This document shows positions 33,107 through 51,052 of a stretch of DNA of 64,000 nt, one piece after another. A program made the position numbers and the translations under genes. The stretch is from the NCBI GenBank assembly GCA_965201145.1, contig CBDAVT010000002.1:1417084-1481083 (forward strand), read 5' to 3'. This stretch comes from Dehalococcoidia bacterium (GTDB taxonomy: Bacteria; Chloroflexota; Dehalococcoidia; Lucifugimonadales; UBA3495). Numbering within the stretch: the stretch's first letter is position 1; each line of letters begins with the position of its first letter. The notes beneath the pieces are model-generated. The model was not told the DNA's origin and did not search any database. It saw only the letters and a program-made list of their open reading frames with translations.

Positions 33107-33116
33107 AATGCCACCT

Positions 33117-33263
33117 TACCTCATAGCCTTCTCTTTCCGCATTGTCCAGCAAGCTTCCATTTCTGAGTTCGGCCCAGCCCTTCTCGTTGGCGGTATCTAC
33201 AATGTGGTCCGGGAGGTAACGGCGCAGGGGCCGTGGGGTGTCGTGGTCAAACCGGATTCTCAT
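33117..33263 (-). pseudogene. Truncated second DUF5615 gene (first ~49 codons only)
   Basis: MRIRFDHDTPRPLRRYLPDHIVDTANEKGWAELRNGSLLDNAEREGYE parallels the intact paralog up to EREGYE. The frame then runs straight into the start of the next DUF433 gene. Confidence 0.6.
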
Positions 33264-33486: not shown

Positions 33487-33512
33487 AGCATCACCCCATC
33501 CATATTTAACCG

Positions 33513-35032: not shown

Positions 35033-35519
35033 CGAAGAGCCTCGCTTGAATTAACTCCGGGAAAAATTCGGTGTAGTTAGGGGCGCCGATGTCGGTAAAG
35101 AACACTCGCAGCGCCTCCTCAAAGGTGCTGTACTTGTCTGTAGCAACCCTCCATGTTTCTTGAGGCTGATAATGTTGGTTAGCCAGCTCTGCCGCGGTGA
35201 TGTAATGGATGTGCGGCTAGGCATAATGCCCATCGAGAGCCCGGCTAACTTCTCCATGGGGGCCGTTATACCTTGCCAGGGTAATAGTCGTCAACTTTCC
35301 TTCGTTAGCTGAGTAGCGAAGGCCAATGGTGAAGTTCAGGTTTATTCTGAGATTCTGCCGGATAAACACCGAGAAAACTCTGCCGTCTTCGTCGGAAGAC
35401 ATTAATTCCAGGTCGCAACGCCGCTGATTATTTTCTTCCCGATAGCCTTGGACGGGACTTTTGCTAGTTATGCGCTTGGGCTGACGAATCAGCATTTCAA
35501 TGTCTTGGTCGGTAATCAT
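35022..35519 (-). pseudogene. Hypothetical passenger gene with an in-frame TAG
   Basis: MITDQDIEML...ARYNGPHGEVSRALDGHYA-TAG(35217-35219)-PHIHYITAAELANQ...PELIQARLFGGY. The same frame continues 65 codons beyond the stop and ends overlapping the next gene's start. Confidence 0.6.
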
Positions 35520-35938
35520 AGGCGAATTTCCTGCGCCAGCCACTCCCAATCAGCCGGGTTATCCAGATTGAGAACCCGCACAAATGTATGGTCGGTCGCT
35601 GCGTTGAGGCAATGCCATTGGGCGCAACGAGTCGCCAGATCAATCTCCAGGCTGGCTTCATTCGGGCCGAGAGATCATTCGGCGTGAACCCCGCCTTCCG
35701 GTGTCGGATACAAATACGGCCGGAGCAGGTCGGGTGCGTATCGCAACCTGAACTGTTCGGCAAGCCAATCCAGGCCTTCCGCCGGGGGCGCCTTCCCGTA
35801 ACCTTCTCCCCATTGACCGGCCGGTTGCAGTCCGTCGGCCCAGCCGTCATTCAACCCTTTGAGTTCCGTCAGTCGGCGAGCTATGTCCAACGGGTCGACG
35901 GATACGCGCTCGCTTCGGCTTTGATCAATATATCGCAT
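35516..35938 (-). pseudogene. Hypothetical passenger gene with an in-frame TGA
   Basis: MRYIDQSRSE...YPTPEGGVHAE-TGA(35675-35677)-SLGPNEASLEIDL...WLAQEIRL. The terminal TGA overlaps the ATG of the next gene (ATGA). Confidence 0.6.
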
Positions 35939-35955
35939 AGTTCTTGCTTTGTCCT

Positions 35956-36211
35956 TTAGATGTTGCTCTTGCCCTGTCCGGCGTCGCCGGTGAAAAGGGA
36001 GCTGCCGTTGTGCACCTCGGCGATGCGGCTGCCCAGGGGCGTGTCCCGCTTCATCTTGATCAGCTGCCTTCGTCGGTTCCAGCACCGCATCCAGGCGGCG
36101 GATGACGGTCATCGGCAGGATAGCGTCGCGGTACTTGCCCCGCACATAGACATCGCGGAGCACATCATCCGCAATACCCCAAATGAAGCTGCTGACATTG
36201 AGCGCGCTCAT
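35956..36211 (-). pseudogene. hsdM: Type I R-M methylase remnant: N-terminal ~48 codons joined out of frame to a short post-catalytic fragment
   Basis: MSALNVSSFIWGIADDVLRDVYVRGKYRDAILPMTVIRRLDAVLEPTK is the HsdM N-terminal domain. The next frame reads GSRIAEVHNGSSLFTGDAGQGKSNI-stop, which corresponds to the NGSxLFTGxAGxGES box. The SAM-binding and NPPF core is absent. Confidence 0.75.
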
Positions 36212-36391
36212 CAAGTCCTCCCCGCCGCGGACACGGTCGCCGTTACCTAAAGTCATTCCGTCCCGGCCGGTCTTCCCAGATCAGCAAAGGCGCCGGTGTT
36301 TACCGCCGCTACGGTTTCCTGCCGACGCATTGCCAACAACTATGGTATCACGCTGGAGGCGCTGGGGACAAAAACAGCAGCGGCGCGCGGA

Positions 36392-36528: not shown

Positions 36529-37164
36529 TTACTCCTCAGGGTCGGGCAGGGGGACCCGAAACATGACGTTGCCGTCCTGGTCGTGGGAATGGGTCATTAT
36601 GGCTTGCTGCAAGCTGCGAATCTGCCCCTGGATTCGCGCACTCTCATAACGAATTAACTCCTCGTTTTGGCGGATGAGGGCTTCCATGTGCCGGAAGCGT
36701 TCTTCGTTCAAGGCATTCATCTGCTGGAAGCGATCTTCCATCCGTTCTTCCATGCGCCGGAAGCGCTCTTCGTTCAGGGCGTCCATCTGCCGGAAGCGCT
36801 CTTCCATCTGCCGGAAACGTTCCTGGTTCAGGGCATCCATGCTTTCGAAACGGTCATATACTCGCTGAAAGCGTTCTTCGTTGCGGGCTTCCATACCTTG
36901 GAAGCGTTCTTCGTTGCGGGCGTCCATGCTTTCGAAACGGTCATATACTCGCTGAAAGCGTTCTTCGTTGCGGGCTTCCATACCTTGGAAGCGTTCTTCG
37001 TTACGGGTTTCCACCGCCTGGAGCTCGGCGCGGAACACTTCCGGTATCCGGGCCGTGGCCTCGGTGAGCTTGCCGATGCGGAAGACGGCCGTGGCCGAAA
37101 GTCCGACTATGGCGAGAAAAACGGTGGCAATGGCGGCGACGCCGGCAATATCGACCAGGTCCAT
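36529..37164 (-). CDS. Membrane-anchored coiled-coil repeat protein (N-terminal TM helix, reiterated RNEERFQ units)
   Basis: TM segment IAGVAAIATVFLAIVGLSATAVF followed by repeats ARNEERFQGME / ARNEERFQRVYDRFESMD (11- and 18-residue periodicity). Confidence 0.7.
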   Translation of the reverse strand: MDLVDIAGVAAIATVFLAIVGLSATAVFRIGKLTEATARIPEVFRAELQAVETRNEERFQGMEARNEERFQRVYDRFESMDARNEERFQGMEARNEERFQRVYDRFESMDALNQERFRQMEERFRQMDALNEERFRRMEERMEDRFQQMNALNEERFRHMEALIRQNEELIRYESARIQGQIRSLQQAIMTHSHDQDGNVMFRVPLPDPEE

Positions 37165-37417: not shown

Positions 37418-38155
37418 TTAGCGCTTGATTACGAAGGGCATGGCGATGGCGATGACTACCGCCACGATGGCGATGACGATGGCGATGATGCCGGTGGTGC
37501 CGCTGGCGTCAACGCCGGCCGCGCCGGCCGGACCCGCCGGACCTGCCGGACCCTGCGGACCCATTGCGCCATCGGCGCCGGTAGCGCCCGCTGCGCCAGC
37601 CGCGCCGGGATCGCCCTGGGGACCGATGGGCCCACGGGCGCCGTCGGCCCCGGTAGCGCCATCGGCGCCATCAGAGCCGGCCGGCCCCTGGGGACCACGG
37701 GCCCCGGCCGGGCCCCGTTCACCCGCCGGCCCCGTCGGACCCACCGGGCCCATATCACCGGCCGGACCCTGCGGCCCCGGCGGGCCTTGCGCGCCGACCC
37801 GGCCCGTCTGGGAGTTGGCCTGCAGGTGGAAGCCTGACTCGACCATACCCGACATCCAGTTGGTCAGCTGCCGGTCCGCGTCCACGCCGGCCACCATAAA
37901 GGTTACGGACGTACCCGAAGGCCGGGTTACGTTGACTTTGAAGGCGCCGTCCGCCTCGGTCATTGCTTCGCCGATTTTCATGGCCCCATCGTGGGCCGTT
38001 ACCATTGTGCCCTGGGGCGGCACCGCTCCGTTGACCATGGCCGTGCCAATCAATACGTGCGGCATCTCCAACTGCTGCGCCATTGCGGTCAGCGGCAGCG
38101 CCGCCAGCATTCCCACCAGCGCAAGCAGGGCCAGGATTCTACTGACTCTTGCCAT
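37418..38155 (-). CDS. Secreted collagen-like (G-X-Y repeat) protein with a C-terminal membrane anchor
   Basis: Signal peptide ILALLALVGMLAALPLTAMA, about 95 aa of uninterrupted GxxGxx (GPPGPQGPAGDMGPVGPTGPAGERGPAG...), and a C-terminal hydrophobic tail IIAIVIAIVAVVIAIAMPFVIKR. Confidence 0.8.
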   Translation of the reverse strand: MARVSRILALLALVGMLAALPLTAMAQQLEMPHVLIGTAMVNGAVPPQGTMVTAHDGAMKIGEAMTEADGAFKVNVTRPSGTSVTFMVAGVDADRQLTNWMSGMVESGFHLQANSQTGRVGAQGPPGPQGPAGDMGPVGPTGPAGERGPAGARGPQGPAGSDGADGATGADGARGPIGPQGDPGAAGAAGATGADGAMGPQGPAGPAGPAGAAGVDASGTTGIIAIVIAIVAVVIAIAMPFVIKR

Positions 38156-38253: not shown

Positions 38254-40896
38254 CTACCAAACTATCTGGTTCCAGCAGTTCCCGCCCACGCAGGTGAGGT
38301 TCCGGGTCCGCCCGTTCAGGATGGCCTCGGTGTCGCTGGTTACCAGGAACAGATAGGTCTCCCCGGTAATCAGGTGGAACAGGTCGCTGGCTTCCACCAC
38401 GTCGGGACGCGGGTCGTAGAAGGCCCACTGCTTGCTGTCGTTGTTGAAGTAGAAAACGCGGACGAAGCTGTCGCCCAGGTTCGATACTCCATCGGCCACC
38501 GGCACGATGTTCCCCGGATTCTGGGCCGACGGCGTTACGGTGAAGCCCTTGCTGGCCGTCGTCTGCCCCACGTGCACCTCAATGGTCTGGATGCCGTTGT
38601 CCAGGCCCGGGATGGTGATGTCGAAGTTCAGCATCCCCTGGGCATCGGTGCTGGGCTTGGGCGCGGGAGTTACCTCCAGCGGGCCAACCTTGACGACGCT
38701 GACCGGCACGAAGGACTTGAACCCTTCGCCGGTGATGGTGATGGTGGAGCCCGGCGAGCCGCTGGTGGTGGACAGGTTGATGATGCCTTCCGGCACATCG
38801 TGGGTCACCGCCGTCACTACTGCCGTATTAGCGGTGCCGTACTCGTACTGGACCTTCACCGTGTTGGTGGAGGGGATGCCGGCGGTGGTGGGAATCCGAA
38901 TCTGGGTCTCAAACCGGCCGCTGGCATCGGGCTGGGCGCTGACCGTGGTCCGGCCCGTGGCGCTTTCGTACACGATTTCCACGCTGAAGCTGTCGCCCTC
39001 ATCATTCTTGCTGGGGAAATTCTTCCCCTGAACCGTGGCCAGGGTGCCGACCCGCCCGGTCTCCGGGGTGATGGTTACCTCCCGGGCCGGGATGTGGACC
39101 ACCACCTTGCCGGTACGCCCCATCGAGTCGCGGACCCGAATCTCCCGGTTCCCTTCCTCGACGGTGGCCGAGTCCAGGGGCAGGTCCACGGCCGCGGACC
39201 AGTTACCGCCGCTGTCCACCTCGACGGGATTGCCGCCGTTAATCCGGGACCACATTATCGGGTGGCCGCCAATGGAAATTTCCGAACCCATGCAACTATC
39301 GCTATCACCGCGGCAGATACTGGCGCCGGCATTAAAGCCGGAACCTACCAGGCTGACCCGCTGGTTGGCCACCACATCTTCCGGCGTTACCCGAATCATC
39401 GGGCCGCTGATGGTAATCGTAGTCGACGCGTTCAAGTTAGGAGCTACGGTTACCCGCAGGTCCTGGACGCCGGCCGGAGCGTCGTCGGGAACAATCAACC
39501 GGAAGTTACCGTTGCCGCTGCTAGATACCGTGCCCGAGCAGTCGCCACCTGTGCAGAGGACCTTGCGGGCCAGCTCTACTTTAATTACTGAAGCGCTCTC
39601 ATTACCAAAATCAAAGAGCTCGACCAGCAAACTTTCACCGGGCGACCCACCGTCGGGCGTTACGCTGATGGAGGATTCCAACTCGAAATCAGCCTGTTCC
39701 TCCCAGTCGGCTATATTGCTGCGACCGTCAACAGCATTAATGTGATTCGGGCCACCCTCAAAGGGCGGAGCAGTTACTTCAAACTGACATTCGCCTACAT
39801 CATCCCCGTTAACGACCGCGCTGCACAGGGTGTACTCATCGTCATCCTGCATCCGGTTGTTATTGGTATCCAGCCAGAAGTGGATGCTGGTGCCGTTCTT
39901 GAAGCCCTTGCCGGTGGCGGTAATCATATCGCCCCGGCCACCTTCATCTTCGTTCAGGCTGATCTTGCGAGCTACGTGGATGACCTTACCACTGCTGCCC
40001 TCACCGGCTATCGTCCAGGCATAATCGCCTCCTTCGGAAGGCAACCTTACGCCGGCAGAAGCCTGGATGGTTATGGTCACCATATCACCCACCACGATGC
40101 CGTCAAGATCGTCGTCAGAGTGCAAATCTCCCATATGGAGAATTATCTCCTCATCATCTGTCTCGATAGCCTCTGGATGAGCAGCACCCGCATCAGCTCG
40201 GATAACTATGTCTTCGACGTCGATACTCGGAACATCAAAATCTTCCATTTCCAGCTTGATTAATCCGTCCAAAGCATCAACTTTATTATTAGCTATGTAT
40301 TTAATTACATAGCGGGGAGAACCAGCAGGGCTTTCTGTGGATGCTGTTATATGCAGCCCTTCCGTCTTTACTTCGAAGTCTCTTTCGGCCATGTGGTAAC
40401 AACCTAATGGAAGTTCCATCGGAGAACTCCAAGCACCACTACAGGTTCCAGATGTAATCCTATCACCGCCAACGTAAGCCCTGACTTGCCGTTGATAACC
40501 TGTGACAGTAAGGGTATAATCTTCCGCTTCATTCAAGGGATTCAATCGAGGAATCTCAAGCATATTCCCCATGCTATGCTTATGACTAGACTCACTGTTC
40601 GGAGGATTCTCAATATACCAATGGGGCCGGGAGAATGTACCGTCAGTTGGCCCTATCTTGAAGTAGTTTCTCATATCTACTTCCCGAGACATTTGAGTAT
40701 CCCCTATCGAAATAGTAGGTTTATCACCCGGAAGGACCATCAAACCGGGCGCATCTTGGTCCGCCAAACTAGCATCAACCGGCTGGTCGGTGCTAGCGAA
40801 GGCGGGGTTGGCCAGACTGGCAGCGCCGAAGACGAGGGCGACGGCCAGAGCCGCGGCGGCGGCCAAGCCAATAATAGGATATAATCCTTTTGCCAT
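38254..40896 (-). CDS. 880-aa secreted protein with multiple IPT/TIG-like Ig-fold repeats
   Basis: Signal peptide AAAALAVALVFGAASLA. Repeated segments of the type GSPGSTITITGEGF...V.VG and VSLVGSGF, TVQGKNF. Confidence 0.7.
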   Translation of the reverse strand: MAKGLYPIIGLAAAAALAVALVFGAASLANPAFASTDQPVDASLADQDAPGLMVLPGDKPTISIGDTQMSREVDMRNYFKIGPTDGTFSRPHWYIENPPNSESSHKHSMGNMLEIPRLNPLNEAEDYTLTVTGYQRQVRAYVGGDRITSGTCSGAWSSPMELPLGCYHMAERDFEVKTEGLHITASTESPAGSPRYVIKYIANNKVDALDGLIKLEMEDFDVPSIDVEDIVIRADAGAAHPEAIETDDEEIILHMGDLHSDDDLDGIVVGDMVTITIQASAGVRLPSEGGDYAWTIAGEGSSGKVIHVARKISLNEDEGGRGDMITATGKGFKNGTSIHFWLDTNNNRMQDDDEYTLCSAVVNGDDVGECQFEVTAPPFEGGPNHINAVDGRSNIADWEEQADFELESSISVTPDGGSPGESLLVELFDFGNESASVIKVELARKVLCTGGDCSGTVSSSGNGNFRLIVPDDAPAGVQDLRVTVAPNLNASTTITISGPMIRVTPEDVVANQRVSLVGSGFNAGASICRGDSDSCMGSEISIGGHPIMWSRINGGNPVEVDSGGNWSAAVDLPLDSATVEEGNREIRVRDSMGRTGKVVVHIPAREVTITPETGRVGTLATVQGKNFPSKNDEGDSFSVEIVYESATGRTTVSAQPDASGRFETQIRIPTTAGIPSTNTVKVQYEYGTANTAVVTAVTHDVPEGIINLSTTSGSPGSTITITGEGFKSFVPVSVVKVGPLEVTPAPKPSTDAQGMLNFDITIPGLDNGIQTIEVHVGQTTASKGFTVTPSAQNPGNIVPVADGVSNLGDSFVRVFYFNNDSKQWAFYDPRPDVVEASDLFHLITGETYLFLVTSDTEAILNGRTRNLTCVGGNCWNQIVW

Positions 40897-40970: not shown

Positions 40971-41016
40971 CCTCACCCCCTAGCCCCCCTCTCCCTGGGG
41001 GAGAGGGGGATGAGGG
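40971..41016. repeat. REP-like element, short single-hairpin version (copy e)
   Basis: CCTCACCCCCTAGCCCCCCTCTCCCtggGGGAGAGGGGGATGAGGG. Confidence 0.6.
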
Positions 41017-41040: not shown

Positions 41041-41505
41041 CTAGTCCAGGGTAAGCAGGGCGCTAACCGTCACCATAGCCGCCGAGCCGCCAACGATGGC
41101 ATAAAAGAGGCGGTCAATGCGGGAATTAACACTCTGCTGCAGGGTGTCGATCCGGGCGGTCACGCCATCGATCCGGGTGTCCATACTCTGTTGCAGGGTG
41201 TCAATCCGGGTAGTCATGCCATCAATCCGGGTAGTCATCTCGCTTTGCAAGGAATCAATCCGGGTGTTGGTTTCCCGCTGGTTGGCGTTCACCTCCCCGC
41301 GCAGCTCCGACAGGCCCTGCTCCACCGCCGTCAGCCGAGCGTTGGTTTCCCGCAAATCACCCCGTACCTCCAACACCGAGTGCTCCACCGCCGTCAACCG
41401 GGCGTTGGTTTCCCGCTGGTTGGCCTGCATCTCCCCGCGCAGCTCCACCAAGCCCGTCTCTACCGCCGTCATCCGTTCCGACAAATCATCCGTAGTAGTT
41501 ACCAT
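41041..41505 (-). CDS. Tail-anchored coiled-coil paralog 1 (154 aa)
   Basis: MVTTTDDLSERMTAVE..., three TAVE..LRG..RETNARL modules, RID-type 11- and 7-residue units, and a C-terminal TM segment FYAIVGGSAAMVTVSALLTLD. Confidence 0.8.
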   Translation of the reverse strand: MVTTTDDLSERMTAVETGLVELRGEMQANQRETNARLTAVEHSVLEVRGDLRETNARLTAVEQGLSELRGEVNANQRETNTRIDSLQSEMTTRIDGMTTRIDTLQQSMDTRIDGVTARIDTLQQSVNSRIDRLFYAIVGGSAAMVTVSALLTLD

Positions 41506-41537
41506 GGTTTCGGTTCCTCCTTACGACTCTGCCAACC

Positions 41538-41565
41538 ACTATACCGGATACCGGCCCATTGTCAA
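41538..41565 (-). promoter_or_regulatory. Promoter of paralog 1 (TTGACA-N16-TATAGT)
   Basis: The reverse complement (rc) reads TTGACAATGGGCCGGTATCCGGTATAGT, followed by the Shine-Dalgarno (SD) sequence AAGGAGGAA and the ATG. Confidence 0.6.
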
Positions 41566-41615
41566 TCCGCCGGGGAACGGGGGGTGATGGCCTTCGGGGT
41601 CAGGGGGATTAGGGG

Positions 41616-42110
41616 CTAGTCCAGGGTAAGAATCAGGGTGAGGAGGGCGCTAACCGTCGCAATCACCATAGCCGAAGAGCCGCCAACGATGGCATAGAAG
41701 AGGCGGTCAATGCGGGAATTAACGCTCTGCTGCAAAGCATCAATCCGGGCGGTCACGCCATCGATCCGGGTGTCCATACTCTGTTGCAGGGTGTCAATCC
41801 GGGTAGTCATCTCGCTTTGCAAGGAATCAATCCGGGTAGTCATCTCGCTTTGCAAGGAATCAATCCGGGCGTTGGTTTCCCGCTGGTTGGCGTTCACCTC
41901 CCCGCGCAGCTCCACCAGGCCCTGCTCCACCGCCGTCAGCCGGGCATTGGTTTCCCGCTGGTTGGCCTGCATCTCCCCCCGCACCTCCAATACCGAGTGC
42001 TCCACCGCCGTCAACCGGGTGTTGGTTTCCCGCAAATCACCCCGCAAGTCTGCAACCGCGTGTTCCACCGCCGTCATCCGTTCCGACAAATCATCCGTAG
42101 TAGTTACCAT
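41616..42110 (-). CDS. Tail-anchored coiled-coil paralog 2 (164 aa)
   Basis: Same architecture, with two RIDSLQSEMTT units plus RIDTLQQSMDT, RIDGVTA and RIDALQQSVNS. Confidence 0.8.
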   Translation of the reverse strand: MVTTTDDLSERMTAVEHAVADLRGDLRETNTRLTAVEHSVLEVRGEMQANQRETNARLTAVEQGLVELRGEVNANQRETNARIDSLQSEMTTRIDSLQSEMTTRIDTLQQSMDTRIDGVTARIDALQQSVNSRIDRLFYAIVGGSSAMVIATVSALLTLILTLD

Positions 42111-42142
42111 AGTTTCGGTTCCTCCTTACAACTCTGCCAACC

Positions 42143-42170
42143 ACTATACCGGATACCGGCTCATTGTCAA
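42143..42170 (-). promoter_or_regulatory. Promoter of paralog 2 (TTGACA-N16-TATAGT)
   Basis: Conserved block: rc TTGACAATGAGCCGGTATCCGGTATAGT. Confidence 0.6.
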
Positions 42171-42188
42171 TCCGCAGGGGGGCAGGGG

Positions 42189-42662
42189 CTAGTCCAAAGT
42201 AAGAATCAGGGTGAGGAGGGCGCTAACCGTTGCAATCACCATAGCCGAAGAGCCGCCAACGATGGCATAAAAGAGGCGGTCAATGCGGGAATTAACGCTC
42301 TGCTGCAAAGCGTCAATCCGGGTAGTCATCTCGCTTTGCAAGGAATCAATTCGGGTAGTCATCTCGCTTTGCAAGGAATCAATCCGGGTAGTCATCTCGC
42401 TTTGCAAGGAATCAATCCGGGCGTTGGTTTCCCGCTGGTTGGCGTTCACCTCCCCGCGCAGCTCCGACAGGCCCTGCTCCACCGCCGTCAGCCGGGCATT
42501 GGTTTCCCGCTGGTTGGCCTGCATCTCCCCCCGCACCTCCAACACCGAGTGCTCCACCGCCGTCAGCCGGGTGTTGGTTTCCCGCAAATCACCCCGCAAG
42601 TCTGCAACCGCGTGTTCCACGGCCGTCATCCGTTCCGACAAATCATCCGTAGTAGTTACCAT
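42189..42662 (-). CDS. Tail-anchored coiled-coil paralog 3 (157 aa)
   Basis: Same architecture, with three consecutive RIDSLQSEMTT units. Confidence 0.8.
   Translation of the reverse strand: MVTTTDDLSERMTAVEHAVADLRGDLRETNTRLTAVEHSVLEVRGEMQANQRETNARLTAVEQGLSELRGEVNANQRETNARIDSLQSEMTTRIDSLQSEMTTRIDSLQSEMTTRIDALQQSVNSRIDRLFYAIVGGSSAMVIATVSALLTLILTLD
42321..42419 (-). repeat. 3 x 33-bp perfect or near-perfect tandem repeat inside paralog 3
   Basis: Unit GGTAGTCATCTCGCTTTGCAAGGAATCAAT(C/T)CG encodes the 11-aa hendecad RIDSLQSEMTT. Two copies of the unit occur in paralogs 2 and 5. Confidence 0.85.
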
Positions 42663-42694
42663 AGTTTCGGTTCCTCCTTACAACTCTGCCAACC

Positions 42695-42722
42695 ACTATA
42701 CCGGATACCGGCCCATTGTCAA
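42695..42722 (-). promoter_or_regulatory. Promoter of paralog 3 (TTGACA-N16-TATAGT)
   Basis: Conserved block. MITE copy 5 lies upstream of it: its proximal TSD copy lies 9 nt from the -35. Confidence 0.6.
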
Positions 42723-42741
42723 TCCGCCTGGGGACAGGCCG

Positions 42742-42924
42742 CAGGGCTATCGCATATGGATTTTAAGAGGCCAATTGACGGTTAAATCTCCGTTTTTAAC
42801 TGCTAAATTTGGGTAATTTAAGACTTAAACCGTTGGTTTTGATGTTGATTACCCAGTAAAGCGCCGCCAAAACATCGGAAAGTTCCGTTCTCATCCTGAA
42901 AATTTTTCATATGCGATAGCCCTG
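42742..42924 (+). mobile_element. MITE copy 5 (183 bp)
   Basis: The TSD is GGACAGGCCG (42732-42741) and GGGCAGGCCG (42925-42934), with one mismatch. Confidence 0.9.
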
Positions 42925-42958
42925 GGGCAGGCCGCCGACGCCTGGCCCTGGGAAGGGG

Positions 42959-43324
42959 CTAGTCCAAAGTAAGAATCAGGGTGAGGAGGGCGCTAACCGT
43001 TGCAATCACCATAGCCGAAGAGCCGCCAACGATGGCATAGAAGAGGCGGTCAATGCGGGAATTAACGCTCTGCTGCAAAGCGTCAATCCGTGCGGCCATC
43101 TCGCTTTGCAAGGCGTCAATTCGGGTGGTCACGCCATCAATCCGGGCGTTGGTTTCCCGCTGGTTGGCGCTTACCTCCCCGCGCAGCTCCGACAGGCCCT
43201 GCTCCACCGCCGTCAACCGGGCATTGGTTTCCCGCTGGTTGGCCTGCATCTCCCCGCGCAACTCCACCACCGAATGTTCCACCGCCGTCATCCGTTCCGA
43301 CAAATCATCCGTAGTAGTTACCAT
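42959..43324 (-). CDS. Tail-anchored coiled-coil paralog 4 (121 aa)
   Basis: Same N- and C-termini but only two TAVE modules and fewer RID units. Confidence 0.8.
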   Translation of the reverse strand: MVTTTDDLSERMTAVEHSVVELRGEMQANQRETNARLTAVEQGLSELRGEVSANQRETNARIDGVTTRIDALQSEMAARIDALQQSVNSRIDRLFYAIVGGSSAMVIATVSALLTLILTLD

Positions 43325-43354
43325 AGTTTCCTTGCCTCCTAAACAATGCCAACC

Positions 43355-43382
43355 ACTATACCGGATACCGGCCCATTGTCAA
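43355..43382 (-). promoter_or_regulatory. Promoter of paralog 4 (TTGACA-N16-TATAGT)
   Basis: Conserved block. The ribosome-binding region differs here (GGAGGCAAGGAAACT-ATG). Confidence 0.55.
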
Positions 43383-43400
43383 TCCGCCGGGGGGACGGCC

Positions 43401-43582
43401 CAGGGCTATCGCATATGAAAAATTTCAGGCTCAGAACGGAACTTTCCGATGTTTTGGCGGCGCTTTACTGGGTAATCAACATCAAAACCAACGGTTTAAG
43501 TCTTAAATTACCCAAATTTAGCAGTTAAAAACGGAGATTTAACCGTCAATTGGCCTCTTAAAATCCATATGCGATAGCCCTG
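43401..43582 (-). mobile_element. MITE copy 6 (182 bp, inverted orientation)
   Basis: Perfect 10-bp TSD GGGGACGGCC at 43391-43400 and 43583-43592. Confidence 0.9.
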
Positions 43583-43593
43583 GGGGACGGCCG

Positions 43594-43675
43594 CCCTCAC
43601 CCCCCTCTCCCTGGGGGAGAGGGGGGAACCAAACAAACACCCCTCTCCGTGCGGGAGAGGGGCTAGGGGTGAGGG
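43594..43675. repeat. REP-like composite palindromic element, copy g (short spacer)
   Basis: CCCTCACCCCCCTCTCCCtggGGGAGAGGGGGG aaccaaacaaacac CCCTCTCCgtgcGGGAGAGGGGCTAGGGGTGAGGG. Confidence 0.75.
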
Positions 43676-43699
43676 CTTTGCGGGGAACGGGGGCAGGGG

Positions 43700-44140
43700 C
43701 TAGTCCAGGGTAAGAATCAGGGTCAGCAGGGCGCTAACCGTTGCAATCACCATAGCCGAAGAGCCGCCAACGATGGCATAGAAGAGGCGGTCAATGCGGG
43801 AGTTAACGCTCTGCTGCAAAGCGTCAATCCGGGTAGTCATCTCGCTTTGCAAGGAATCAATCCGGGTAGTCATCTCGCTTTGCAAGGAATCAATCCGGGC
43901 GTTGGTTTCCCGCTGGTTGGCGTTCACCTCCCCGCGCAGCTCCACCAGGCCCTGCTCCACCGCCGTCAGCCGGGCATTGGTTTCCCGCTGGTTGGCCTGC
44001 ATCTCCCCGCGCACCTCCACCAGGCCCGTCTCCACCGCCGTCAACCGGGTGTTGGTTTCCCGCAAATCACCCCGCAAGTCTGCAACCGCGTGTTCCACCG
44101 CCGTCATCCGTTCCGACAAATCATCCGTAGTAGTTACCAT
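43700..44140 (-). CDS. Tail-anchored coiled-coil paralog 5 (146 aa)
   Basis: Same architecture, with two RIDSLQSEMTT units. Confidence 0.8.
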   Translation of the reverse strand: MVTTTDDLSERMTAVEHAVADLRGDLRETNTRLTAVETGLVEVRGEMQANQRETNARLTAVEQGLVELRGEVNANQRETNARIDSLQSEMTTRIDSLQSEMTTRIDALQQSVNSRIDRLFYAIVGGSSAMVIATVSALLTLILTLD

Positions 44141-44172
44141 AGTTTCGGTGCCTCCTTACAACTCTGCCAACC

Positions 44173-44200
44173 ACTATACCGGATACCGGCCCATTGTCAA
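44173..44200 (-). promoter_or_regulatory. Promoter of paralog 5 (TTGACA-N16-TATAGT)
   Basis: Conserved block: rc TTGACAATGGGCCGGTATCCGGTATAGT. Confidence 0.6.
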
Positions 44201-44220
44201 TCCGCCTGGGGACGGCGGCC

Positions 44221-44328
44221 GCCCCCGGCCCCTCTCCCTGGGGGAGAGGGGAGTTTGTGTTTGGGGTAGTAGCCGGCTTATCCGCTAAAGTCCCCCTCTC
44301 CTCGCGGGAGAGGGGTTAGGGGTGAGGG
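44221..44328. repeat. REP-like composite palindromic element, copy h (left arm degenerate)
   Basis: GCCCCCGGCCCCTCTCCCtggGGGAGAGGGGAG ... CCCCCTCTCCtcgcGGGAGAGGGGTTAGGGGTGAGGG. Confidence 0.7.
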
Positions 44329-44352
44329 CTTTGCGGGGAACGGGGGCAGGGG

Positions 44353-44736
44353 CTAGTCCAGGGTAAGAATCAGGGTGAGGAGGGTACCGAGCAGGGTAAT
44401 TACTACTGCCACCGCACCGCCGATAATGGCATAGAAGAGGCGGTCAATGCGGGAATTCACGCTCTGCTGCAAAGCATCAATCCGGGCGGCCACGCCATCA
44501 ATCCGGGTGTTCATCGACCGCTGGTCCTCCCGCAGCTCGGACATACCCGTCTCCAGGGCCGTCAACCGGGCGTTGGTTTCCTGCAAATCGCCCCGCACTT
44601 CCAACACCGAGTGCTCCACCGCCGTCAACCGGGCATTGGTTTCCCGCTGGTTGGCCTGCATCTCCCCGCGCAACTCCACCAGACCCGTATCCACCGCCGT
44701 CATCCGTTCCGACAAATCATCCGCAGTAGTTACCAT
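44353..44736 (-). CDS. Tail-anchored coiled-coil paralog 6 (127 aa, most divergent)
   Basis: MVTTADDLSERMTAVD..., a divergent third module (TALETGMSELREDQRSMNT), and a divergent TM segment (AIIGGAVAVVITLLGTLLTLILTLD). Confidence 0.8.
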   Translation of the reverse strand: MVTTADDLSERMTAVDTGLVELRGEMQANQRETNARLTAVEHSVLEVRGDLQETNARLTALETGMSELREDQRSMNTRIDGVAARIDALQQSVNSRIDRLFYAIIGGAVAVVITLLGTLLTLILTLD

Positions 44737-44768
44737 AGTTTCGGTTCCTCCTTACAACTCTGCCAACC

Positions 44769-44796
44769 ACTATACCGGATACCGGCTCATTGTCAA
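44769..44796 (-). promoter_or_regulatory. Promoter of paralog 6 (TTGACA-N16-TATAGT)
   Basis: Conserved block. IS copy 2 lies upstream of it, separated from the -35 by 9 nt plus the 10-bp flank. Confidence 0.6.
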
Positions 44797-44815
44797 TCCG
44801 CCGGGGGGACGGCCG

Positions 44816-46022
44816 CAGGGCTATCGCATATGAAAAGAGCAGGAATTGGGTAAGATATTGGTTGTAGTTGAGTAGGAAGGGAGGACGGCATGTCCGAGCT
44901 AGAGGATCTGTTCGCTGACCTGGAGGACCCGCGCGCTGGCAACGCCCGCCGGCATTCCTTGCACGATATTCTGGTCATTGCCTTGTGCGCCATCATCTGC
45001 GGCGGCCAGACCTGCACCGATATGGAACTCTTTGGCCGGGCCAAACGGGAGCTGCTGCAATCTTTCCTGAAGCTGGAAAACGGCATTCCCAGCCACGACA
45101 CCTTCTCCCGGGTGCTGGGAATGCTGGACCCGGAGGCTTTCCAAGGGTGGTTTATCGAGTTCATGGCCGAGTTTGCCCAAGGTGTTGAGGGAGTGGTGGC
45201 GGTGGACGGCAAGACCTTGCGCCGCTCCTATGACCGGGCGGGGGCACGCTCGCCACTGCATCTGGTCAGCGCCTGGGCGGAGGAGCAGCGGCTGTCGTTG
45301 GGGCAAGTGGCCGTTGCCGGCAAATCCAATGAGATTAAGGCTTTGCCCAAACTGCTGGAGTTGTTGAACTTGCGCGGGAAAGTGGTTACCGCCGACGCCA
45401 TGCACTGCCAGCGTCAAGTGGCACAGCAGGTGGTAGCCCAGAAAGGGGATTATGCCTTGGCGCTGAAAGGCAACCAGGGCCGGCTGCGGGACGATGTGCA
45501 GTTGTTTCTGGAGGACCCGGACACCCCAGCGACCCAAGCCAGCGAGGTCAGCAAGGGGCACGGGCGGGTGGAGCGGCGGCAGGCCCGGGTCAGCGGGGAC
45601 ATTGACTGGCTGCAGGAACGATATGCCTGGCCCGGCTTGAAGGCGGTGGGCAAAGTAACGGCCACCCGGCAGTTGGCGGCGGCGGAACCGGCTCCGGGAG
45701 AACTGCACGAGGAAACCCGGTACTATCTGCTGAGCCGGGACTGGTCGCCGGAGCGGTTCAATGCCATTGTGCGGGGCCATTGGGGAATTGAGAACCGGCT
45801 GCATTGGGTACTGGACGTAACCTGCAATGAAGACCAGGCCCGCAACCGGAAAGGACACGGGGCGGAGAATCTGGCCTTGCTGCGGAAACTGGCTTTGAAC
45901 CTGGCTCGGCTGGAACCGGGCAAAGGCTCCATGCGCGGCAAGCTGAAACGGGCCGGCTGGGACGACAATTTCCTGATTAACATCCTGGCCCAATTCACTA
46001 AATTCCATATGCGATAGCCCTG
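44816..46022 (+). mobile_element. ISAs1-family insertion sequence, copy 2 (1,207 bp), without a matching TSD
   Basis: Same 17-bp terminal inverted repeats. The left flank is GGGACGGCCG, but the right flank is a G run, so no direct repeat is present. Confidence 0.9.
44890..46017 (+). CDS. ISAs1-family DDE transposase, copy 2
   Basis: The 375-aa protein is apparently identical to copy 1. About five nucleotide differences were seen over the whole element. Confidence 0.92.
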   Translation: MSELEDLFADLEDPRAGNARRHSLHDILVIALCAIICGGQTCTDMELFGRAKRELLQSFLKLENGIPSHDTFSRVLGMLDPEAFQGWFIEFMAEFAQGVEGVVAVDGKTLRRSYDRAGARSPLHLVSAWAEEQRLSLGQVAVAGKSNEIKALPKLLELLNLRGKVVTADAMHCQRQVAQQVVAQKGDYALALKGNQGRLRDDVQLFLEDPDTPATQASEVSKGHGRVERRQARVSGDIDWLQERYAWPGLKAVGKVTATRQLAAAEPAPGELHEETRYYLLSRDWSPERFNAIVRGHWGIENRLHWVLDVTCNEDQARNRKGHGAENLALLRKLALNLARLEPGKGSMRGKLKRAGWDDNFLINILAQFTKFHMR

Positions 46023-46037
46023 GGGGGGGGGGGGGGG
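46022..46037. repeat. G16 homopolymer abutting the right end of IS copy 2
   Basis: Direct count of 16 G. The first G is also the last base of the terminal inverted repeat. The run is followed by CGGCGGGATC. Confidence 0.9.
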
Positions 46038-46247: not shown

Positions 46248-46673
46248 CTATTCTACCAGCCAATTTCGTAACGACTGGGGACGACTCCCCCATCCGGCTA
46301 CATCCGATACGTGGGTAGAGCCACTCCAAACCCACGTTTCCAGCTCCGGCGATAGCACTATTGTCCTTGCCCGTTCACCCCACCTTGAATTTGAGAATTC
46401 CTCATTCAGACTACTTTCCAAGACTATGGGAGTTAAGTTCTCTCTACCGCTGCCTTCGTGATCGAACAATAGTAACGCATGGCGATACTGGTTAGTGAAA
46501 TTGGACAAGAAACTAACGCCATGTCTGGCGCAGGCGGGGTCATGTTGAGGGTGCACGCGAATATCAGTTTCAATGGCACGAATGTTCAGCGCTTGGGGAC
46601 GATTAAGCAACCCTGTCAGCGTGTGTTCCATGTCCTTATCAGCAACCAGGACTATCAGGTCTTTCCGGCTCAT
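46248..46673 (-). CDS. Small acidic protein (141 aa), possibly Toprim/DUF4276-like, partner of the upstream ATPase
   Basis: The start overlaps the ATPase stop (4 nt). The strand-plus-acidic patterns LIVLVADKDMEH and ALLLFDHEGSG recall Toprim-type E / DxD motifs. This assignment is tentative. Confidence 0.55.
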   Translation of the reverse strand: MSRKDLIVLVADKDMEHTLTGLLNRPQALNIRAIETDIRVHPQHDPACARHGVSFLSNFTNQYRHALLLFDHEGSGRENLTPIVLESSLNEEFSNSRWGERARTIVLSPELETWVWSGSTHVSDVAGWGSRPQSLRNWLVE

Positions 46674-47926
46674 CCCAGTACACCGGAGGCCAGCAAAGTC
46701 CCCAAATCAACATCACCTTGCCAATCTCTGAGTTTGGGATGTTCTGAACCAAGAACAATATCGGTAGAGCCGTCATCACATTTGGCGAAACAGATCACGC
46801 TGCTTGCTTGAGCTGCATTCAATACCACCGGCGAATGAGTTGCCAGCAGTACTTGAGACTTGTACAGGGAAGATAAAGAATCATAAGCGGTAGAAACAGC
46901 GGCAGGATGGATTCCGTTCTCCGGTTCCTCAATCAGGTAAGTTCCCGAAATGTCTGGCAAATATGCCGGCAAAGTTAGAGCTGCAAGCCGAAGTGTGCCA
47001 TCGGAGACCAGCCAGGAAGGGATGCTCATTCCGCCGGCGTACTGGAATATCATGTAACAATGTCGATCTTCAGGTCGCTCAAAGGTTGAGATGTCAACCA
47101 GTTCAGGCAATGCAGTCCTTAGATGTCCGATCCAGGCACGATGCCGTTCCGGATGCTCCTGACCCAGCCGTTGGACAACCCAGGGAATATTTGAGCCATC
47201 GGGCAAGAAGCCGGGGATCCTGACTGGGGAGCTAGGCCGTTTTATAACTCGGCTATTTAGGACAAACGACTGGACTCCCTCGGTCAAGAAATTCCGAAAC
47301 CACATAGCCACCGGGAATGAGTTTTCGTCAGCGGGCAAGTTTCCTAAAGCCGACCTTTGGAGCCCTAGTTTGAAGGAGGGCGCCCAACCTCGGCCCGAAT
47401 GTTTGTATGTTTCGCTGTAAAAGTTGTCGTTTCCCCCGGGAACTTTGTTAACTACCACTTTATTAGCCGACCCATGAATTCCTACCAGTAATGTGGCCGG
47501 TATGGGCATCAGAGATGGAAAAAATGAACGCCGGTTTTCAGTTTCCCTGCCCTTGCCAAGTAGAAAGGTTTCTGACTTGAACTCAAATCGTCTTCCCGTT
47601 TCGTCCAGGCCCAATACAATCTGATAGCGAGCTGTCTCCAAATCCGGTCGGGCGGTTAACTCACGCAATGTATCCGGGATAAGCGCCTCTACTGCCAGTT
47701 CAAAACGGGATCCCATACCCTGAAACAGGAGTTCATGAGGGTTAGGAGTCCGCTCTAGCAAGGCATTTTCTAATCCATAGGACACCAAGTCGCTCAGGAA
47801 ACCAATGACATCCAGAAAGGTGGACTTGCCGGACGCATTTGGGCCCACCAGCACATGGAAGGGATTGAGCGGCCTTTGAACGTAGCGTAAACAACGGTAA
47901 TTCAGAGCTTCGACCAACGTAATCAT
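46670..47926 (-). CDS. ABC-type (AAA_15/AAA_21-like, RecF/SMC-head-like) ATPase
   Basis: Walker A VGPNASGKST, Walker B plus D-loop YLIEEPENGIHP, and H-loop LLATHSPVVL. The protein is 418 aa. Confidence 0.8.
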   Translation of the reverse strand: MITLVEALNYRCLRYVQRPLNPFHVLVGPNASGKSTFLDVIGFLSDLVSYGLENALLERTPNPHELLFQGMGSRFELAVEALIPDTLRELTARPDLETARYQIVLGLDETGRRFEFKSETFLLGKGRETENRRSFFPSLMPIPATLLVGIHGSANKVVVNKVPGGNDNFYSETYKHSGRGWAPSFKLGLQRSALGNLPADENSFPVAMWFRNFLTEGVQSFVLNSRVIKRPSSPVRIPGFLPDGSNIPWVVQRLGQEHPERHRAWIGHLRTALPELVDISTFERPEDRHCYMIFQYAGGMSIPSWLVSDGTLRLAALTLPAYLPDISGTYLIEEPENGIHPAAVSTAYDSLSSLYKSQVLLATHSPVVLNAAQASSVICFAKCDDGSTDIVLGSEHPKLRDWQGDVDLGTLLASGVLG

Positions 47927-47968: not shown

Positions 47969-49012
47969 CTACCCCCTCCCCACCAGACCTTGCGCGGTGC
48001 GGATTACCCGGGCGGCGTTGGGGACGTAGGCGTTTTCCAGGGGGCGACTGTAGGGTACGGGAGTGTGGGGCGCCGTGACCCGGGACGGAGGGGCATCCAG
48101 GTAGTCAAAGGCTTCCTCGGCTACCCGCGCGCAGATGTCTGAAGCCAGACTGCATACCGGCGTATCCTCGTCCACCACCACCAGCCGATGGGTGCGTCGC
48201 ACCGAGTCGATGATCAGGTCGTAGTCGATGGGCGACACGCTGAGCAGGTCCACCACCTCAGCGTTGATATTCGCTTTAGCCAACTCCTCCGCCGCCTCGG
48301 TGCAAACCCAGGTCATCCGGGAAATACCTACCAAAGTTATGTCGCTGCCGGAACGGACGGTCCGAGACTTGCCCAGGGGAATGGCATAGGGTTCTTCCGG
48401 CACCGGCCCGGTATCGCCGTACAATCCCTTGTGCTCGAAATAGACCACCGGGTCGTCATCGCGAATGGACGCAATCAGCAGCCCCTTGGCGGTGTAAGGG
48501 TCGGAGGGAACCACTCCCTTCAGGCCCGGTATGTGGCTGAAGATGGAGTAAAATGACTCGGAATGCTGGGCGGCGCTGCCGAAGCCGGCGCCGATGCGGG
48601 TCAACATAGTGAAGGGAACCTTGACCTGACCGCCGAACATATACCGCATCTTGGCCGCATTATTCAACAGCTGGTCCATACAGACGCCGACAAAGTCGAC
48701 GAACATCAACTCGGCCACTGCGCGCATCCCGGTAGATGCGGCGCCAATGGCAGTACCCACGAAAGCGGCCTCGGACAAGGGGGTGTCCAGCACCCGCTGG
48801 TTGCCGAACTGCTGAATCAGCCCCACGGTGGTGCGGAAGGGGCCGCCCCAGGCATCGACGATGCCCAGATGCTCCCGGCCGGCGCCACCGGCAATCTCCT
48901 CACCCATAATTATGACCGTCTCATCGCGCTCCATCTCCTGGCGCAAGGCCTCATTAATGGCCTCGCGGTAACGCAGCTCCCGGGTAGTGTTGGGAGTCAT
49001 GGTAGTAGTCAT
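47969..49012 (-). CDS. 2-oxoacid (pyruvate/acetoin/branched-chain) dehydrogenase E1 component, beta subunit
   Basis: LREAINEALRQEMERDETVIIMGEE...VLDTPLSEAAFVGTAIGAA is the typical transketolase-like pyrimidine-binding and C-terminal domain pattern. Confidence 0.9.
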   Translation of the reverse strand: MTTTMTPNTTRELRYREAINEALRQEMERDETVIIMGEEIAGGAGREHLGIVDAWGGPFRTTVGLIQQFGNQRVLDTPLSEAAFVGTAIGAASTGMRAVAELMFVDFVGVCMDQLLNNAAKMRYMFGGQVKVPFTMLTRIGAGFGSAAQHSESFYSIFSHIPGLKGVVPSDPYTAKGLLIASIRDDDPVVYFEHKGLYGDTGPVPEEPYAIPLGKSRTVRSGSDITLVGISRMTWVCTEAAEELAKANINAEVVDLLSVSPIDYDLIIDSVRRTHRLVVVDEDTPVCSLASDICARVAEEAFDYLDAPPSRVTAPHTPVPYSRPLENAYVPNAARVIRTAQGLVGRG

Positions 49013-49101
49013 GGTGTTACTCCTTGCTTCAGATTCCGGTCAACTTTAGCGTCGCAGTAGGCAGGGCAAAATTTCCAGGTCTGAATTGCCAAAGAATCAA
49101 T

Positions 49102-50022
49102 TCAGGCCGTGAGGTAACGGGAATTATTTTCCAAAAGAAGCAATTGTTCCCTTGCTTCAACTGCATCTCCCGTCAAGTTGGTCAGGTCATAGTTTGTAAC
49201 AATGGCTTCCAGCATGGGTTTCCTGTTTCTCTCGTAGGCGCCAACGTGATAAAAGTGCTCCTGTATGGATACTGAAAACTCGTTCCACAGCTCAGGTACA
49301 AACCGATTGACTCGGTGCTGGTTGCTATGCCACGTGGACAGCATAAACCTGGCCGGTGTATTCTTCAACAGACCGTGCAGCTGCCGCTCCTGCCGGTCAT
49401 CCCAAGTATGATAATAATCTACGTGTCGGCCAGCGTAAGGCGGGTCGCAATATACAAAATCATGGCTCGCAACTTCCTGAATCGTCTTCCGGAAATCCTG
49501 GCAGACAAAGTTCCAATTAAGCATTTGTACGGCTGCTCTAAAACACTCCACCTGGTTTACTATTTTCGTAATGTAAGCCGGCGAAAACCGCTTTGGCTTG
49601 TGCCCAAAGGGAACATTGAAATGCCCCTTGCTATTGAATCGGACAACTCCGTTAAAACAAGACCGATTGAGAAAAAGAAAGTCCAGGGGGCAAGCCAACG
49701 AATTGAAACGGTCTCTGATATAGTAGTAATGGGACTTGCCGTTATTCGCCAACAAGGTCCCCTCGCGCTCGAGGAAAAACCTTGTCGTCTTACCATCTAA
49801 TTCTCCTTCTTTGATGGCCTGATAAAACCGAATGATATGAGGGTTAGTATCTGCCAGCAGAGCCTTCCGGGGCAGCACATTCAGAGCAACTACTCCGGAA
49901 CCGAGGAAAGGTTCAATCCACACTCCATCAGAATCTCGGTCAAGACACCGCAAGATTTGCGGGACCAGTTTGGTCTTGATACCCTGGCACTTCAGCGGCG
50001 GGACTCGCACTCGCAAGCTCAT
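49102..50022 (-). CDS. Dam-like N6-adenine DNA methyltransferase, M.EcoRV-type
   Basis: QGIKTKLVP, EPFLGSGVV (FxGxG), FLFLNRSCFNGVVRFNSKG, and the catalytic CDPPYAGRHVDY. Collinear with M.EcoRV as I recall it. Confidence 0.85.
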   Translation of the reverse strand: MSLRVRVPPLKCQGIKTKLVPQILRCLDRDSDGVWIEPFLGSGVVALNVLPRKALLADTNPHIIRFYQAIKEGELDGKTTRFFLEREGTLLANNGKSHYYYIRDRFNSLACPLDFLFLNRSCFNGVVRFNSKGHFNVPFGHKPKRFSPAYITKIVNQVECFRAAVQMLNWNFVCQDFRKTIQEVASHDFVYCDPPYAGRHVDYYHTWDDRQERQLHGLLKNTPARFMLSTWHSNQHRVNRFVPELWNEFSVSIQEHFYHVGAYERNRKPMLEAIVTNYDLTNLTGDAVEAREQLLLLENNSRYLTA

Positions 50023-50867: not shown

Positions 50868-51052
50868 CTTAATCCCTATTTATGGCTAAAGTGGGAAAGT
50901 ATATCCGCTTCAATTTAACCTGCTGACGTAAGTAAAGAGCCCCACAGTCCTCCCGGATGTATGCTGTCTTTGTGAAGATGAACGGCATGGCTCACACGCT
51001 GCTATTGACAAGGTCTGTTCAGTTGGTGTCCCTACTGATGAGATTAGCCCCC

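Follow-up and report, generated by a model that had tools for sequence, protein, structure and literature searches.

A tandem array of genes for predicted tail-anchored coiled-coil rods of graded length beside envelope genes in a Dehalococcoidia bacterium

What kind of protein is encoded six times in a row, in copies that differ in length by whole repeat modules, and what might such a set do for the cell? The question is raised by a stretch of 64,000 nucleotides from a Dehalococcoidia bacterium (assembly GCA_965201145.1, contig CBDAVT010000002.1), which we call the window throughout, in which six consecutive minus-strand open reading frames of 121-164 amino acids, named here g1 to g6, form an array at positions 41041-44736 (the coordinates of all features of the window are collected in Table 1). 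With slightly better than even confidence, we read this array as a lineage-specific expansion of tail-anchored rods, probably trimeric, which would serve as scaffolds for an envelope module from the cytoplasmic side of the membrane.

The six proteins share the N-terminus MVTT[TA]DDLSERMTAV and, at the other end, a hydrophobic helix with ...LTLD after it. In each of them a 12-residue N-cap precedes the first module, and the remainder is composed of two to three A modules of 21 or 25 residues (TAVExxxxELRG(EMQANQ)RETNARL), two to five B modules of 7 or 11 residues (DGVTARI and DSLQSEMTTRI) and a C segment, formed by DRLFYAIVGG... and the membrane helix. The module strings differ among all six proteins, and the protein lengths differ solely by 4, 7, 11, 21 or 25 residues, steps that preserve the coiled-coil register. 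Intragenic 33-bp and 75-bp arrays were detected with Tandem Repeats Finder; an earlier, sequence-only reading of this DNA had described the triple 33-bp repeat of g3 as perfect, and the repeat is indeed present, with an identity of 97% and one mismatch (CGA for CGG). None of the six exact protein sequences was found in a collection of 15 billion proteins, in which neighbouring proteins of the window are present; a masking or gene-calling gap could account for this.

Structure prediction, made on single chains only, gave for g2 (AlphaFold2, 40-sequence alignment) one unbroken helix comprising residues 3-163, with a mean predicted local distance difference test score of 94.7, and the hydrophobic periodicity of the array proteins, 3.52-3.59 residues, lies between those of heptad and hendecad coiled coils. 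At 0.148 nm per residue, the rod parts, 91-134 residues long, correspond to ~13.5-20 nm. A Foldseek search of the model against the PDB retrieved no matches, since a single long helix carries no fold information, and a PDB sequence search retrieved only generic coiled coils (VAMP2, apolipoproteins, haemagglutinin HA2, Lpp and 6h9l, E >= 2e-4). The C-terminal hydrophobic segment has 21-27 residues and is located within the last 30, the tail after the helix being a single Asp, whereas no signal peptide or hydrophobic N-terminal segment was found in the array proteins. By the established biogenesis of tail-anchored proteins, the N-terminal domain stays in the cytoplasm because the C-terminal helix leaves the ribosome only when translation ends, and, taken together with the missing signal peptide and the C-terminal anchor, this leads us to expect the rod to face the cytoplasm. 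The ORF list, the module parsing and these predictions therefore agree with much of what the sequence-only reading had proposed, namely six minus-strand paralogs of 121-164 residues with common ends, length variation by whole 21-25-residue and 7/11-residue modules, a heptad/hendecad coiled coil, and tail-anchoring without a signal peptide.

Concerning the oligomer state, the trimerisation motif R-h-x-x-h-E (Kammerer 2005, as cited in PMC6173795) is present two to three times per array protein, as the RMTAVE or RLTAVE that opens each A module, compared with 0.1 times in shuffled sequences. The core positions of the coiled coil also contain beta-branched residues, and the two features together make a parallel trimer the most likely state of the rods.

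Each gene of the array carries its own upstream signals. The 28-nt box TTGACA-N16-TATAGT is present exactly six times in the window, once ahead of each gene, while the shuffled-sequence control gave 0 full boxes and 1.9 generic promoter-like sites; the boxes are repeat-free and identical bar one spacer base (G or A), and a ribosome-binding site, AAGGAGG, is located 6-7 nt ahead of every ATG. We predict these promoters to be of the sigma-70 type. In the 65 nt from the -35 hexamer to the ATG, g1, g2, g3, g5 and g6 show 0-2 differences among themselves, as against a synonymous divergence of 8-37%, so this block must be constrained or homogenised beyond neutral expectation. The conserved GTA second codon was also considered, as a rare-codon signal, and rejected, given that GTA makes up 21.5% of the valine codons here. 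The near-consensus promoter and Shine-Dalgarno sequence that had been attributed to each gene were thus recovered, but the accompanying description of the array as six monocistronic units is not established, because no hairpin was found in the g3-g2 and g2-g1 gaps: separate transcription initiation at each gene is likely, judging from the boxes, and read-through from g3 into g2 and g1 is likely as well.

The array genes are under purifying selection, with pairwise ratios of nonsynonymous to synonymous substitution (dN/dS) of 0.18-0.44 and proportions of synonymous differences (pS) of 0.08-0.37, and all six copies are kept by selection; in the last 123 nt of g2-g5 there are 1-6 differences, all of them synonymous. 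An expansion of a single copy during assembly, which the sequence-only reading had named among the outcomes that would overturn it, is ruled out, since the synonymous divergence between copies is 8-37% and unique sequences, namely miniature inverted-repeat transposable elements (MITEs) and repetitive extragenic palindromes (REPs), separate them.

We then asked to which family these proteins belong. Pfam and NCBIfam searches retrieved only sub-threshold coiled-coil matches, with the exception of a marginal one to HSBP1 (PF06825, cut-off 28.6 bits), which g1 and g2 exceed (31.9 and 31.3 bits) and g3-g6 do not (27.7, 25.4, 22.0 and 18.1 bits), and which covers only ~31-33 residues of RIDxL repeats. 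HSBP1 shares with the array proteins repeated RIDx[LM]xx-RIDxL in a trimeric coiled coil, but it is a soluble eukaryotic protein of ~76 residues without a membrane helix, and we treat the likeness as one of motif rather than of membership. A word-indexed search found few relatives, whereas from 1.84 billion representatives a HMMER profile search recovered 1075 proteins (E<1e-3), 51 of them with E<1e-10. Many of these matches have 85-180 residues, the same tip, variable xxNARIDxxQ repeats, the anchor motif RIDR[LV]F[WY]A and a membrane helix. Among the retrieved matches, 83 are tail-anchored at <=300 residues; 44 of these contain the pre-anchor motif R-[I..]-[DE]-[RK]-..., and 25 of the 44 also bear the M[VT]T..DD tip. 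No curated family claims the array proteins, which, by profile search, belong to a sizeable uncurated family of tail-anchored coiled-coil proteins. All matches in GTDB species genomes are from metagenome-assembled genomes of Dehalococcoidia, and a scan of JGI metagenomes yielded one 1.3-kb locus. Housekeeping proteins near the array fall into clusters with proteins that bear Dehalococcoidia or Chloroflexota names, and these names and the GTDB matches are the basis on which the analysis placed the DNA taxonomically. The genome studied here encodes at least eleven members in total, with at least five paralogs (99-138 residues) outside the window: P0001, P0003 (91% identical to g6), P0004 and P0005 on the same 2.42-Mb (2,422,633-bp) contig as the array, and P0002 on a 592,460-bp contig. 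Tandem, multi-copy sets of length-variable rods are present in the window (six genes) and in three of the other loci retrieved, L002 (three), L008 (three) and L015 (eleven).

The L015 locus, on a 3.3-Mb contig, provides the connection to a described type of protein. Its eleven rod genes, arranged as five plus six, code for proteins of 82-181 residues that read MTTTPTPTPxEERMARLEAxYEHLATKSDIAELRGEM, followed by variable 11-residue GEMKADNAALR units, ...NRMIRWMVSL... and a membrane helix. Two of these proteins score 35.3 and 31.6 bits against PF07798, the DUF1640 family, one of them passing the cut-off of 33.5. The alignment of the L015 profile (A3) with that of the window family (A1) by hhalign gave a probability of 91.2% (E 9.8e-7, 87 columns), compared with 1.1% for the negative control, the unrelated coiled coil at 36529-37164; EERMARLEA is paired with SERMTAVE and ELRGEM with ELRGEM, and a 9-residue gap falls exactly at the beta-layer, AYEHLATKSD. 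Intermediates also exist, as L002 and P0093 combine an L015-type N-terminal half (EERIARLEAAYEHMATKEDL), with an N-terminus reading MVTASNEERIARLEAAYEHMATKEDL..., and a window-type anchor, ARIDRVFWAV.

DUF1640 stalks start with a beta-layer motif, [aliphatic]-A-T-K-[polar]-[DE], a nonad (PMC4786415), which we identified in L015 (HLATKSDI) and, in canonical form, in L002 (HMATKEDL) and P0093, and which is absent from g1-g6. The N-terminal MVT was considered as a beta-layer cap and discarded, its register being one residue off the published motif (PMC4786415) and hhalign placing the tip before the beta-layer. A globular head domain before the stalk is likewise absent from the array proteins, whose helix begins at residue 3 and in which only ~12 residues lie ahead of the first module, while the single C-terminal transmembrane anchor without a signal peptide is present as in DUF1640. 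With three defining DUF1640 features tested and not found, the array family is not a formal member; on profile evidence it is distantly related to DUF1640 and lacks both head and beta-layer. The sequence-only reading had likened the topology to DUF1640 and XhlA and had considered the family unplaceable: the comparison with DUF1640 was on target, as the profile alignment and the L015 Pfam score indicate, and the lack of a curated match still holds, so that only the verdict of unplaceability has to be given up. The DUF1640/CCDC90-like proteins (PF07798; MCUR1 and CCDC90B) have the same C-terminal anchor, a long coiled-coil stalk on the matrix or cytoplasmic side and no signal peptide; the array proteins differ from them in their own tip (MVTTTDDLSERM) and anchor motif (RIDRLFYA), and their genes in forming length-variable tandem arrays beside envelope genes. 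The coiled coil of MCUR1, which is a transmembrane scaffold, faces the mitochondrial matrix (bioRxiv 10.1101/2025.10.14.682030), and by analogy this would support a cytoplasmic orientation of the rods.

The neighbourhood of the array points to the envelope. The order rods, large immunoglobulin-like (Ig-like) protein, collagen-like protein is found in the window, in L008 and in L015. The L008 orthologs of the Ig-like and collagen-like proteins show 55% and 59% identity, respectively, in a layout of rod-rod-1151 aa-collagen-TM-rod-collagen (TM, transmembrane), and in L015 five rod genes precede and six follow the Ig-like/collagen-like pair. The array thus belongs to a conserved cluster with Ig-like and collagen-like genes. 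For the 880-residue Ig-like protein of the window, roughly 44 homologs are known from our searches. Besides the Gly positions, the membrane helix is the best-conserved part of the collagen-like protein, which hints at contacts within the membrane.

Two side observations concern the members of such clusters and the wider family. The large Ig-like proteins of L015 (4277-6826 and 10001-12958, two genes that flank a rod array) and of the window have in common a conserved C-terminal domain of ~70 residues, its end reading ...LTC[VA]GGNCWN[QL]IVW, which matches no curated family. In addition, two metagenomic contigs contain a single rod gene between two genes for trypsin-like (HtrA-type) proteases (P0007 in L007, 8489-12048; P0006 in L009, 2565-5914), a second recurrent context, unlike the envelope cluster.

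In the cytoplasmic scaffold that we favour, each gene, from its own promoter and ribosome-binding site, would give rise to one continuous helix, and the helices would assemble into parallel trimers, rods of ~13.5-20 nm. The C-terminal helix would be inserted post-translationally, the rod and the invariant 16-residue tip staying in the cytoplasm. Many gene copies would provide a high dosage, and from six strong promoters a high rod abundance may be expected; unequal recombination or slippage among in-phase 21/33/63/75-bp modules would spread the rod lengths with the register intact. The rods would cooperate with the Ig-like secreted protein and with the collagen-like membrane-anchored trimer, their most likely role being that of a membrane-side scaffold or tether for a surface structure, although role and partner are both put forward from sequence.

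Several of our findings weigh against this proposal. The envelope link rests on three loci and is not universal: members in L001 and L013 stand alone in unrelated contexts, and those in L007 and L009 sit between the proteases. The conserved neighbours are all extracytoplasmic, which fits rods outside the membrane more naturally, and the wider family shows only a weak charge bias near the membrane helix (N-flank net ~+1, tail often ending in R or K). As to kinship, no array paralog reaches the PF07798 cut-off of 33.5 bits (20.6, 17.4 and 15.8, the other three array paralogs not being among the matches listed), and all similarities involve coiled coils, which inflate scores. A bolder form of the proposal, which we regard as doubtful, is that such Dehalococcoidia-type bacteria build an undescribed membrane skeleton, in which dense, trimeric, tail-anchored rods of graded length, with as many as 11 genes to an array, would connect across the membrane with a collagen-like/Ig-like surface layer, the rods lying under the membrane or, if exported by some signal-peptide-independent route, acting as the pillars of that layer.

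The main rival explanation, which seems to us unlikely, places the rods outside the membrane, as pillars or spacers that keep the layer of Ig-like protein and the fibres of collagen-like protein at a fixed height above the cytoplasmic membrane. It would account for the conserved synteny with a signal-peptide-bearing 880-residue Ig-like protein and an anchored collagen-like protein, and the Thr- or Thr/Pro-rich tips (MVTTTDD and MTTTPTPTP) resemble O-glycosylated extracellular linkers; many relatives have R or K after the membrane helix, Lpp is among the weak PDB sequence matches, and 14-20 nm is typical of pseudo-periplasm widths. Oligomeric, part-hendecad rods with one end anchored in the membrane and with a genetic or physical link to a surface layer are, in fact, familiar from Sulfolobus SlaB, Staphylothermus tetrabrachion and E. 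coli Lpp, but these are exported by a signal peptide, located outside the membrane, single-copy and of fixed length. Signal peptides are absent throughout the array family, all relatives having the conserved tip from Met1 onwards, so that an export route so far unknown would be needed; when the array proteins were checked for the features of an S-layer stalk, an N-terminal secretion signal plus a C-terminal anchor, no N-terminal hydrophobic segment was found in them. Furthermore, tail-anchor biogenesis leaves the N-terminal domain in the cytoplasm, several rod lengths per cell do not suit a fixed spacer, and the DUF1640 coiled coil faces the matrix (bioRxiv 10.1101/2025.10.14.682030).

The remaining rivals, YqjD-like, contingency-locus and XhlA-like, each fail at least one tested feature. 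It is improbable, in our judgement, that the tip attaches to ribosomes, or to some other machine of the cytosol, and under stress ties it to the membrane or inactivates it there, as in YqjD, ElaB and YgaM (DUF883), C-tail-anchored, ribosome-inactivating paralog sets of Proteobacteria with a critical N-terminus. YqjD function requires the N-terminus and oligomerisation via a glycine-rich membrane helix, and the phyla reported for DUF883 did not include Chloroflexota (bioRxiv 10.1101/2024.08.16.608256); the array family has an invariant tip and Gly-rich membrane helices, the same arrangement of helical N-domain and C-tail anchor, and also comes in paralogous gene sets. Yet no sequence kinship with these proteins is detectable, DUF883 being absent from the lists of the 25 best Pfam matches of the array paralogs, the helix is continuous and Pro-free, with no conserved Pro next to the membrane helix, the C-terminus is LTLD instead of the expected RR, promoters so close to consensus point to high, constitutive expression and not to induction by stress, and the neighbouring genes are envelope-related and not involved in translation. 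We give still less credit to a contingency locus of the Mycoplasma Vsa/Vlp kind, a source of phase or size variation in which slippage or recombination of repeats would switch or resize the product within a population. The perfect or near-perfect 33-bp tandem repeats, the module-mosaic paralogs and the insertion of MITE and insertion sequence (IS) at the same site upstream of three promoters are what such a locus would contain, but the repeat periods (21, 33, 63 and 75 bp) are all in frame and keep the register, and, being multiples of 3 bp, allow no frame-shifting switch; the promoter boxes lack repeats and vary by one spacer base only, the copies are old (pS 0.08-0.37), and rods in the cytoplasm, if that is where they are, would be under no immune or phage pressure. 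Least probable of all, and very remote, is an origin as phage-derived XhlA-like holin-accessory or lysis proteins, or a role in phage exclusion within a defence island. XhlA (PF10779, phrog_937), from Bacillus prophage lysis cassettes, is likewise a small protein that has its coiled coil at the N-terminus and its membrane helix at the C-terminus; weak matches over the full length to phrog_937 ("hemolysin", XhlA; E 7.7e-6), phrog_18362 (E 4.4e-8) and Pfam XhlA (E 0.014) were obtained, and the array is flanked by restriction-modification genes, an AAA_21/HEC-01A-like ATPase and insertion sequences. The array proteins are, however, much longer, modular and multi-copy, every match is under the curated cut-offs (the best array score is 16 bits, against 34.7 for PF10779), tblastn against 50,697 phage records gave only coiled-coil tail-fibre matches, the surroundings contain neither a holin or endolysin gene nor any other from a phage, a lysis factor driven by six strong constitutive promoters would kill the cell, and the conserved partners are envelope proteins. 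As a defence system, the array itself was considered and rejected, because PADLOC returned only coiled-coil noise (LeoA, ZorA, JetC and LmuB, E >= 1e-5).

The array is interspersed with REP-like hairpins, two MITEs and an IS, as had been described, and all of them were located (Table 1). The two MITEs and the IS have a common terminal repeat, CAGGGCTATCGCATATG. They occupy one homologous site, ~20 bp upstream of three different array promoters, which suggests target preference (GGGGACGGCC) or repeated capture. The MITE family has seven copies of 183 bp in the window, with 10-bp target duplications and a 17-bp terminal repeat that is the same as in the ISAs1-family IS; this IS has two copies in the window, and its transposase belongs to a cluster of ~10 members across the two contigs of the genome. 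The copy next to the array shows no target duplication on its far side and borders a run of 16 G (46006-46037); it may have rearranged or truncated the upstream edge of the array.

Other genes of the window can be described briefly. The 211-residue protein at 36529-37164, which the sequence-only reading had considered related to the array, is only analogous to it, homology being undetectable at the hhalign probability given above; its gene contains tandem DNA repeats (87 bp x 2.2 and 66 bp x 1.9, RNEERFQ-type units), and by the positive-inside rule its coiled coil is predicted to be cytoplasmic also. In the type I restriction-modification locus, hsdM seems degraded, as a 193-residue HsdM_N fragment is followed by out-of-frame ORFs. 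The AAA_21 ATPase beside the array has HEC-01A as its best PADLOC match (E 3e-41), with mad3, AriA and others also matched, and is paired with a 141-residue partner with a weak mad4 match; the two may form a defence system of two genes. The genes for E1 alpha and E1 beta of a 2-oxoacid dehydrogenase have between them an EcoRV-type restriction endonuclease (PF09233, E 3e-113) and a D12-class adenine methyltransferase, which gives the appearance of a metabolic operon that a restriction-modification cassette has entered.

Table 1. Features of the array and of its surroundings in the window.
Feature	Coordinates	Strand	Description
g1	41041-41505	minus	154 aa; N-A25-A21-A25-B11-B7-B11-B7-B11-C; membrane helix 6 aa shorter than in the other five
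g2	41616-42110	minus	164 aa; N-A21-A25-A25-B11-B11-B11-B7-B11-C; longest rod, 134 residues ahead of the anchor motif
g3	42189-42662	minus	157 aa; N-A21-A25-A25-B11x4-C; four 11-aa units
g4	42959-43324	minus	121 aa; N-A25-A25-B7-B11-B11-C; shortest rod, 91 residues
g5	43700-44140	minus	146 aa; N-A21-A25-A25-B11x3-C
g6	44353-44736	minus	127 aa; N-A25-A21-A21-B7-B11-C; most divergent, pS 0.29-0.37 against the others
Promoter-like box of g1	41538-41565	minus	TTGACA-N16-TATAGT
Promoter-like box	42143-42170		identical or near-identical
Promoter-like box	42695-42722		identical or near-identical
Promoter-like box	43355-43382		identical or near-identical
Promoter-like box	44173-44200		identical or near-identical
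Promoter-like box	44769-44796		identical or near-identical
33-bp tandem repeat	42313-42421	minus	3.3 copies, 97%; encodes DSLQSEMTTRI; in g3
33-bp tandem repeat	41794-41869		2.3 copies, 100%
33-bp tandem repeat	43824-43899		2.3 copies, 100%
Ig-like (TIG) secreted protein	38254-40896	minus	880 aa; directly downstream of the array; conserved neighbour
Collagen-like protein	37418-38155	minus	signal peptide and conserved C-terminal membrane anchor; conserved neighbour
REP-like hairpin	40988-41006		after g1; CCTCTCCC...GGAGAGG
REP-like hairpin	43604-43660		after g5
REP-like hairpin	44231-44313		after g6
MITE	42742-42924		183 bp; near-perfect 10-bp target duplication; ~20 bp upstream of the g3 -35 hexamer
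MITE	43401-43582		182 bp; opposite orientation; 10-bp target duplication; homologous site upstream of the g4 promoter
MITE	19109-19291
MITE	21617-21799
MITE	25982-26164
MITE	29029-29211
MITE	53572-53754
ISAs1-family IS	44816-46022	plus	1207 bp; transposase 44890-46017; homologous site upstream of the g6 promoter
ISAs1-family IS	19302-20508		1207 bp
211-aa protein	36529-37164	minus	N-terminal membrane helix, repeat-rich coiled coil
Type I restriction-modification locus	29532-36256		hsdR 29532-32636; hsdS 33513-34256; HsdM_N fragment 35675-36256
AAA_21 ATPase	within 46248-47926
EcoRV-type endonuclease and D12-class methyltransferase	49102-50867		within 47969-52060

The DUF1640-type tail-anchored coiled coil is already known as a kind of protein, whereas a variant without head or beta-layer, length-variable arrays with their own upstream signals for each copy, and the conserved pairing of rods with Ig-like and collagen-like envelope genes appear to be undescribed; we found nothing in the literature on the headless variant, on length-variable arrays or on the pairing with envelope genes. 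To our knowledge, prokaryotic DUF1640-type proteins have no known function, and the role of MCUR1/CCDC90B is debated; the envelope of Chloroflexota is itself poorly understood. Should the envelope link be coincidental, the array would be no more than a small hypothetical membrane protein expanded, in an ordinary way, within one lineage. If the membrane skeleton, which we hold doubtful, were true, it would be the first cellular role for prokaryotic DUF1640-type proteins. The same gene order in three separate contigs makes the action of the rods as a membrane scaffold for a surface structure a testable hypothesis, and the array is a clean natural example of how coiled-coil length evolves by the in-register gain and loss of modules of 7, 11, 21 and 25 residues.

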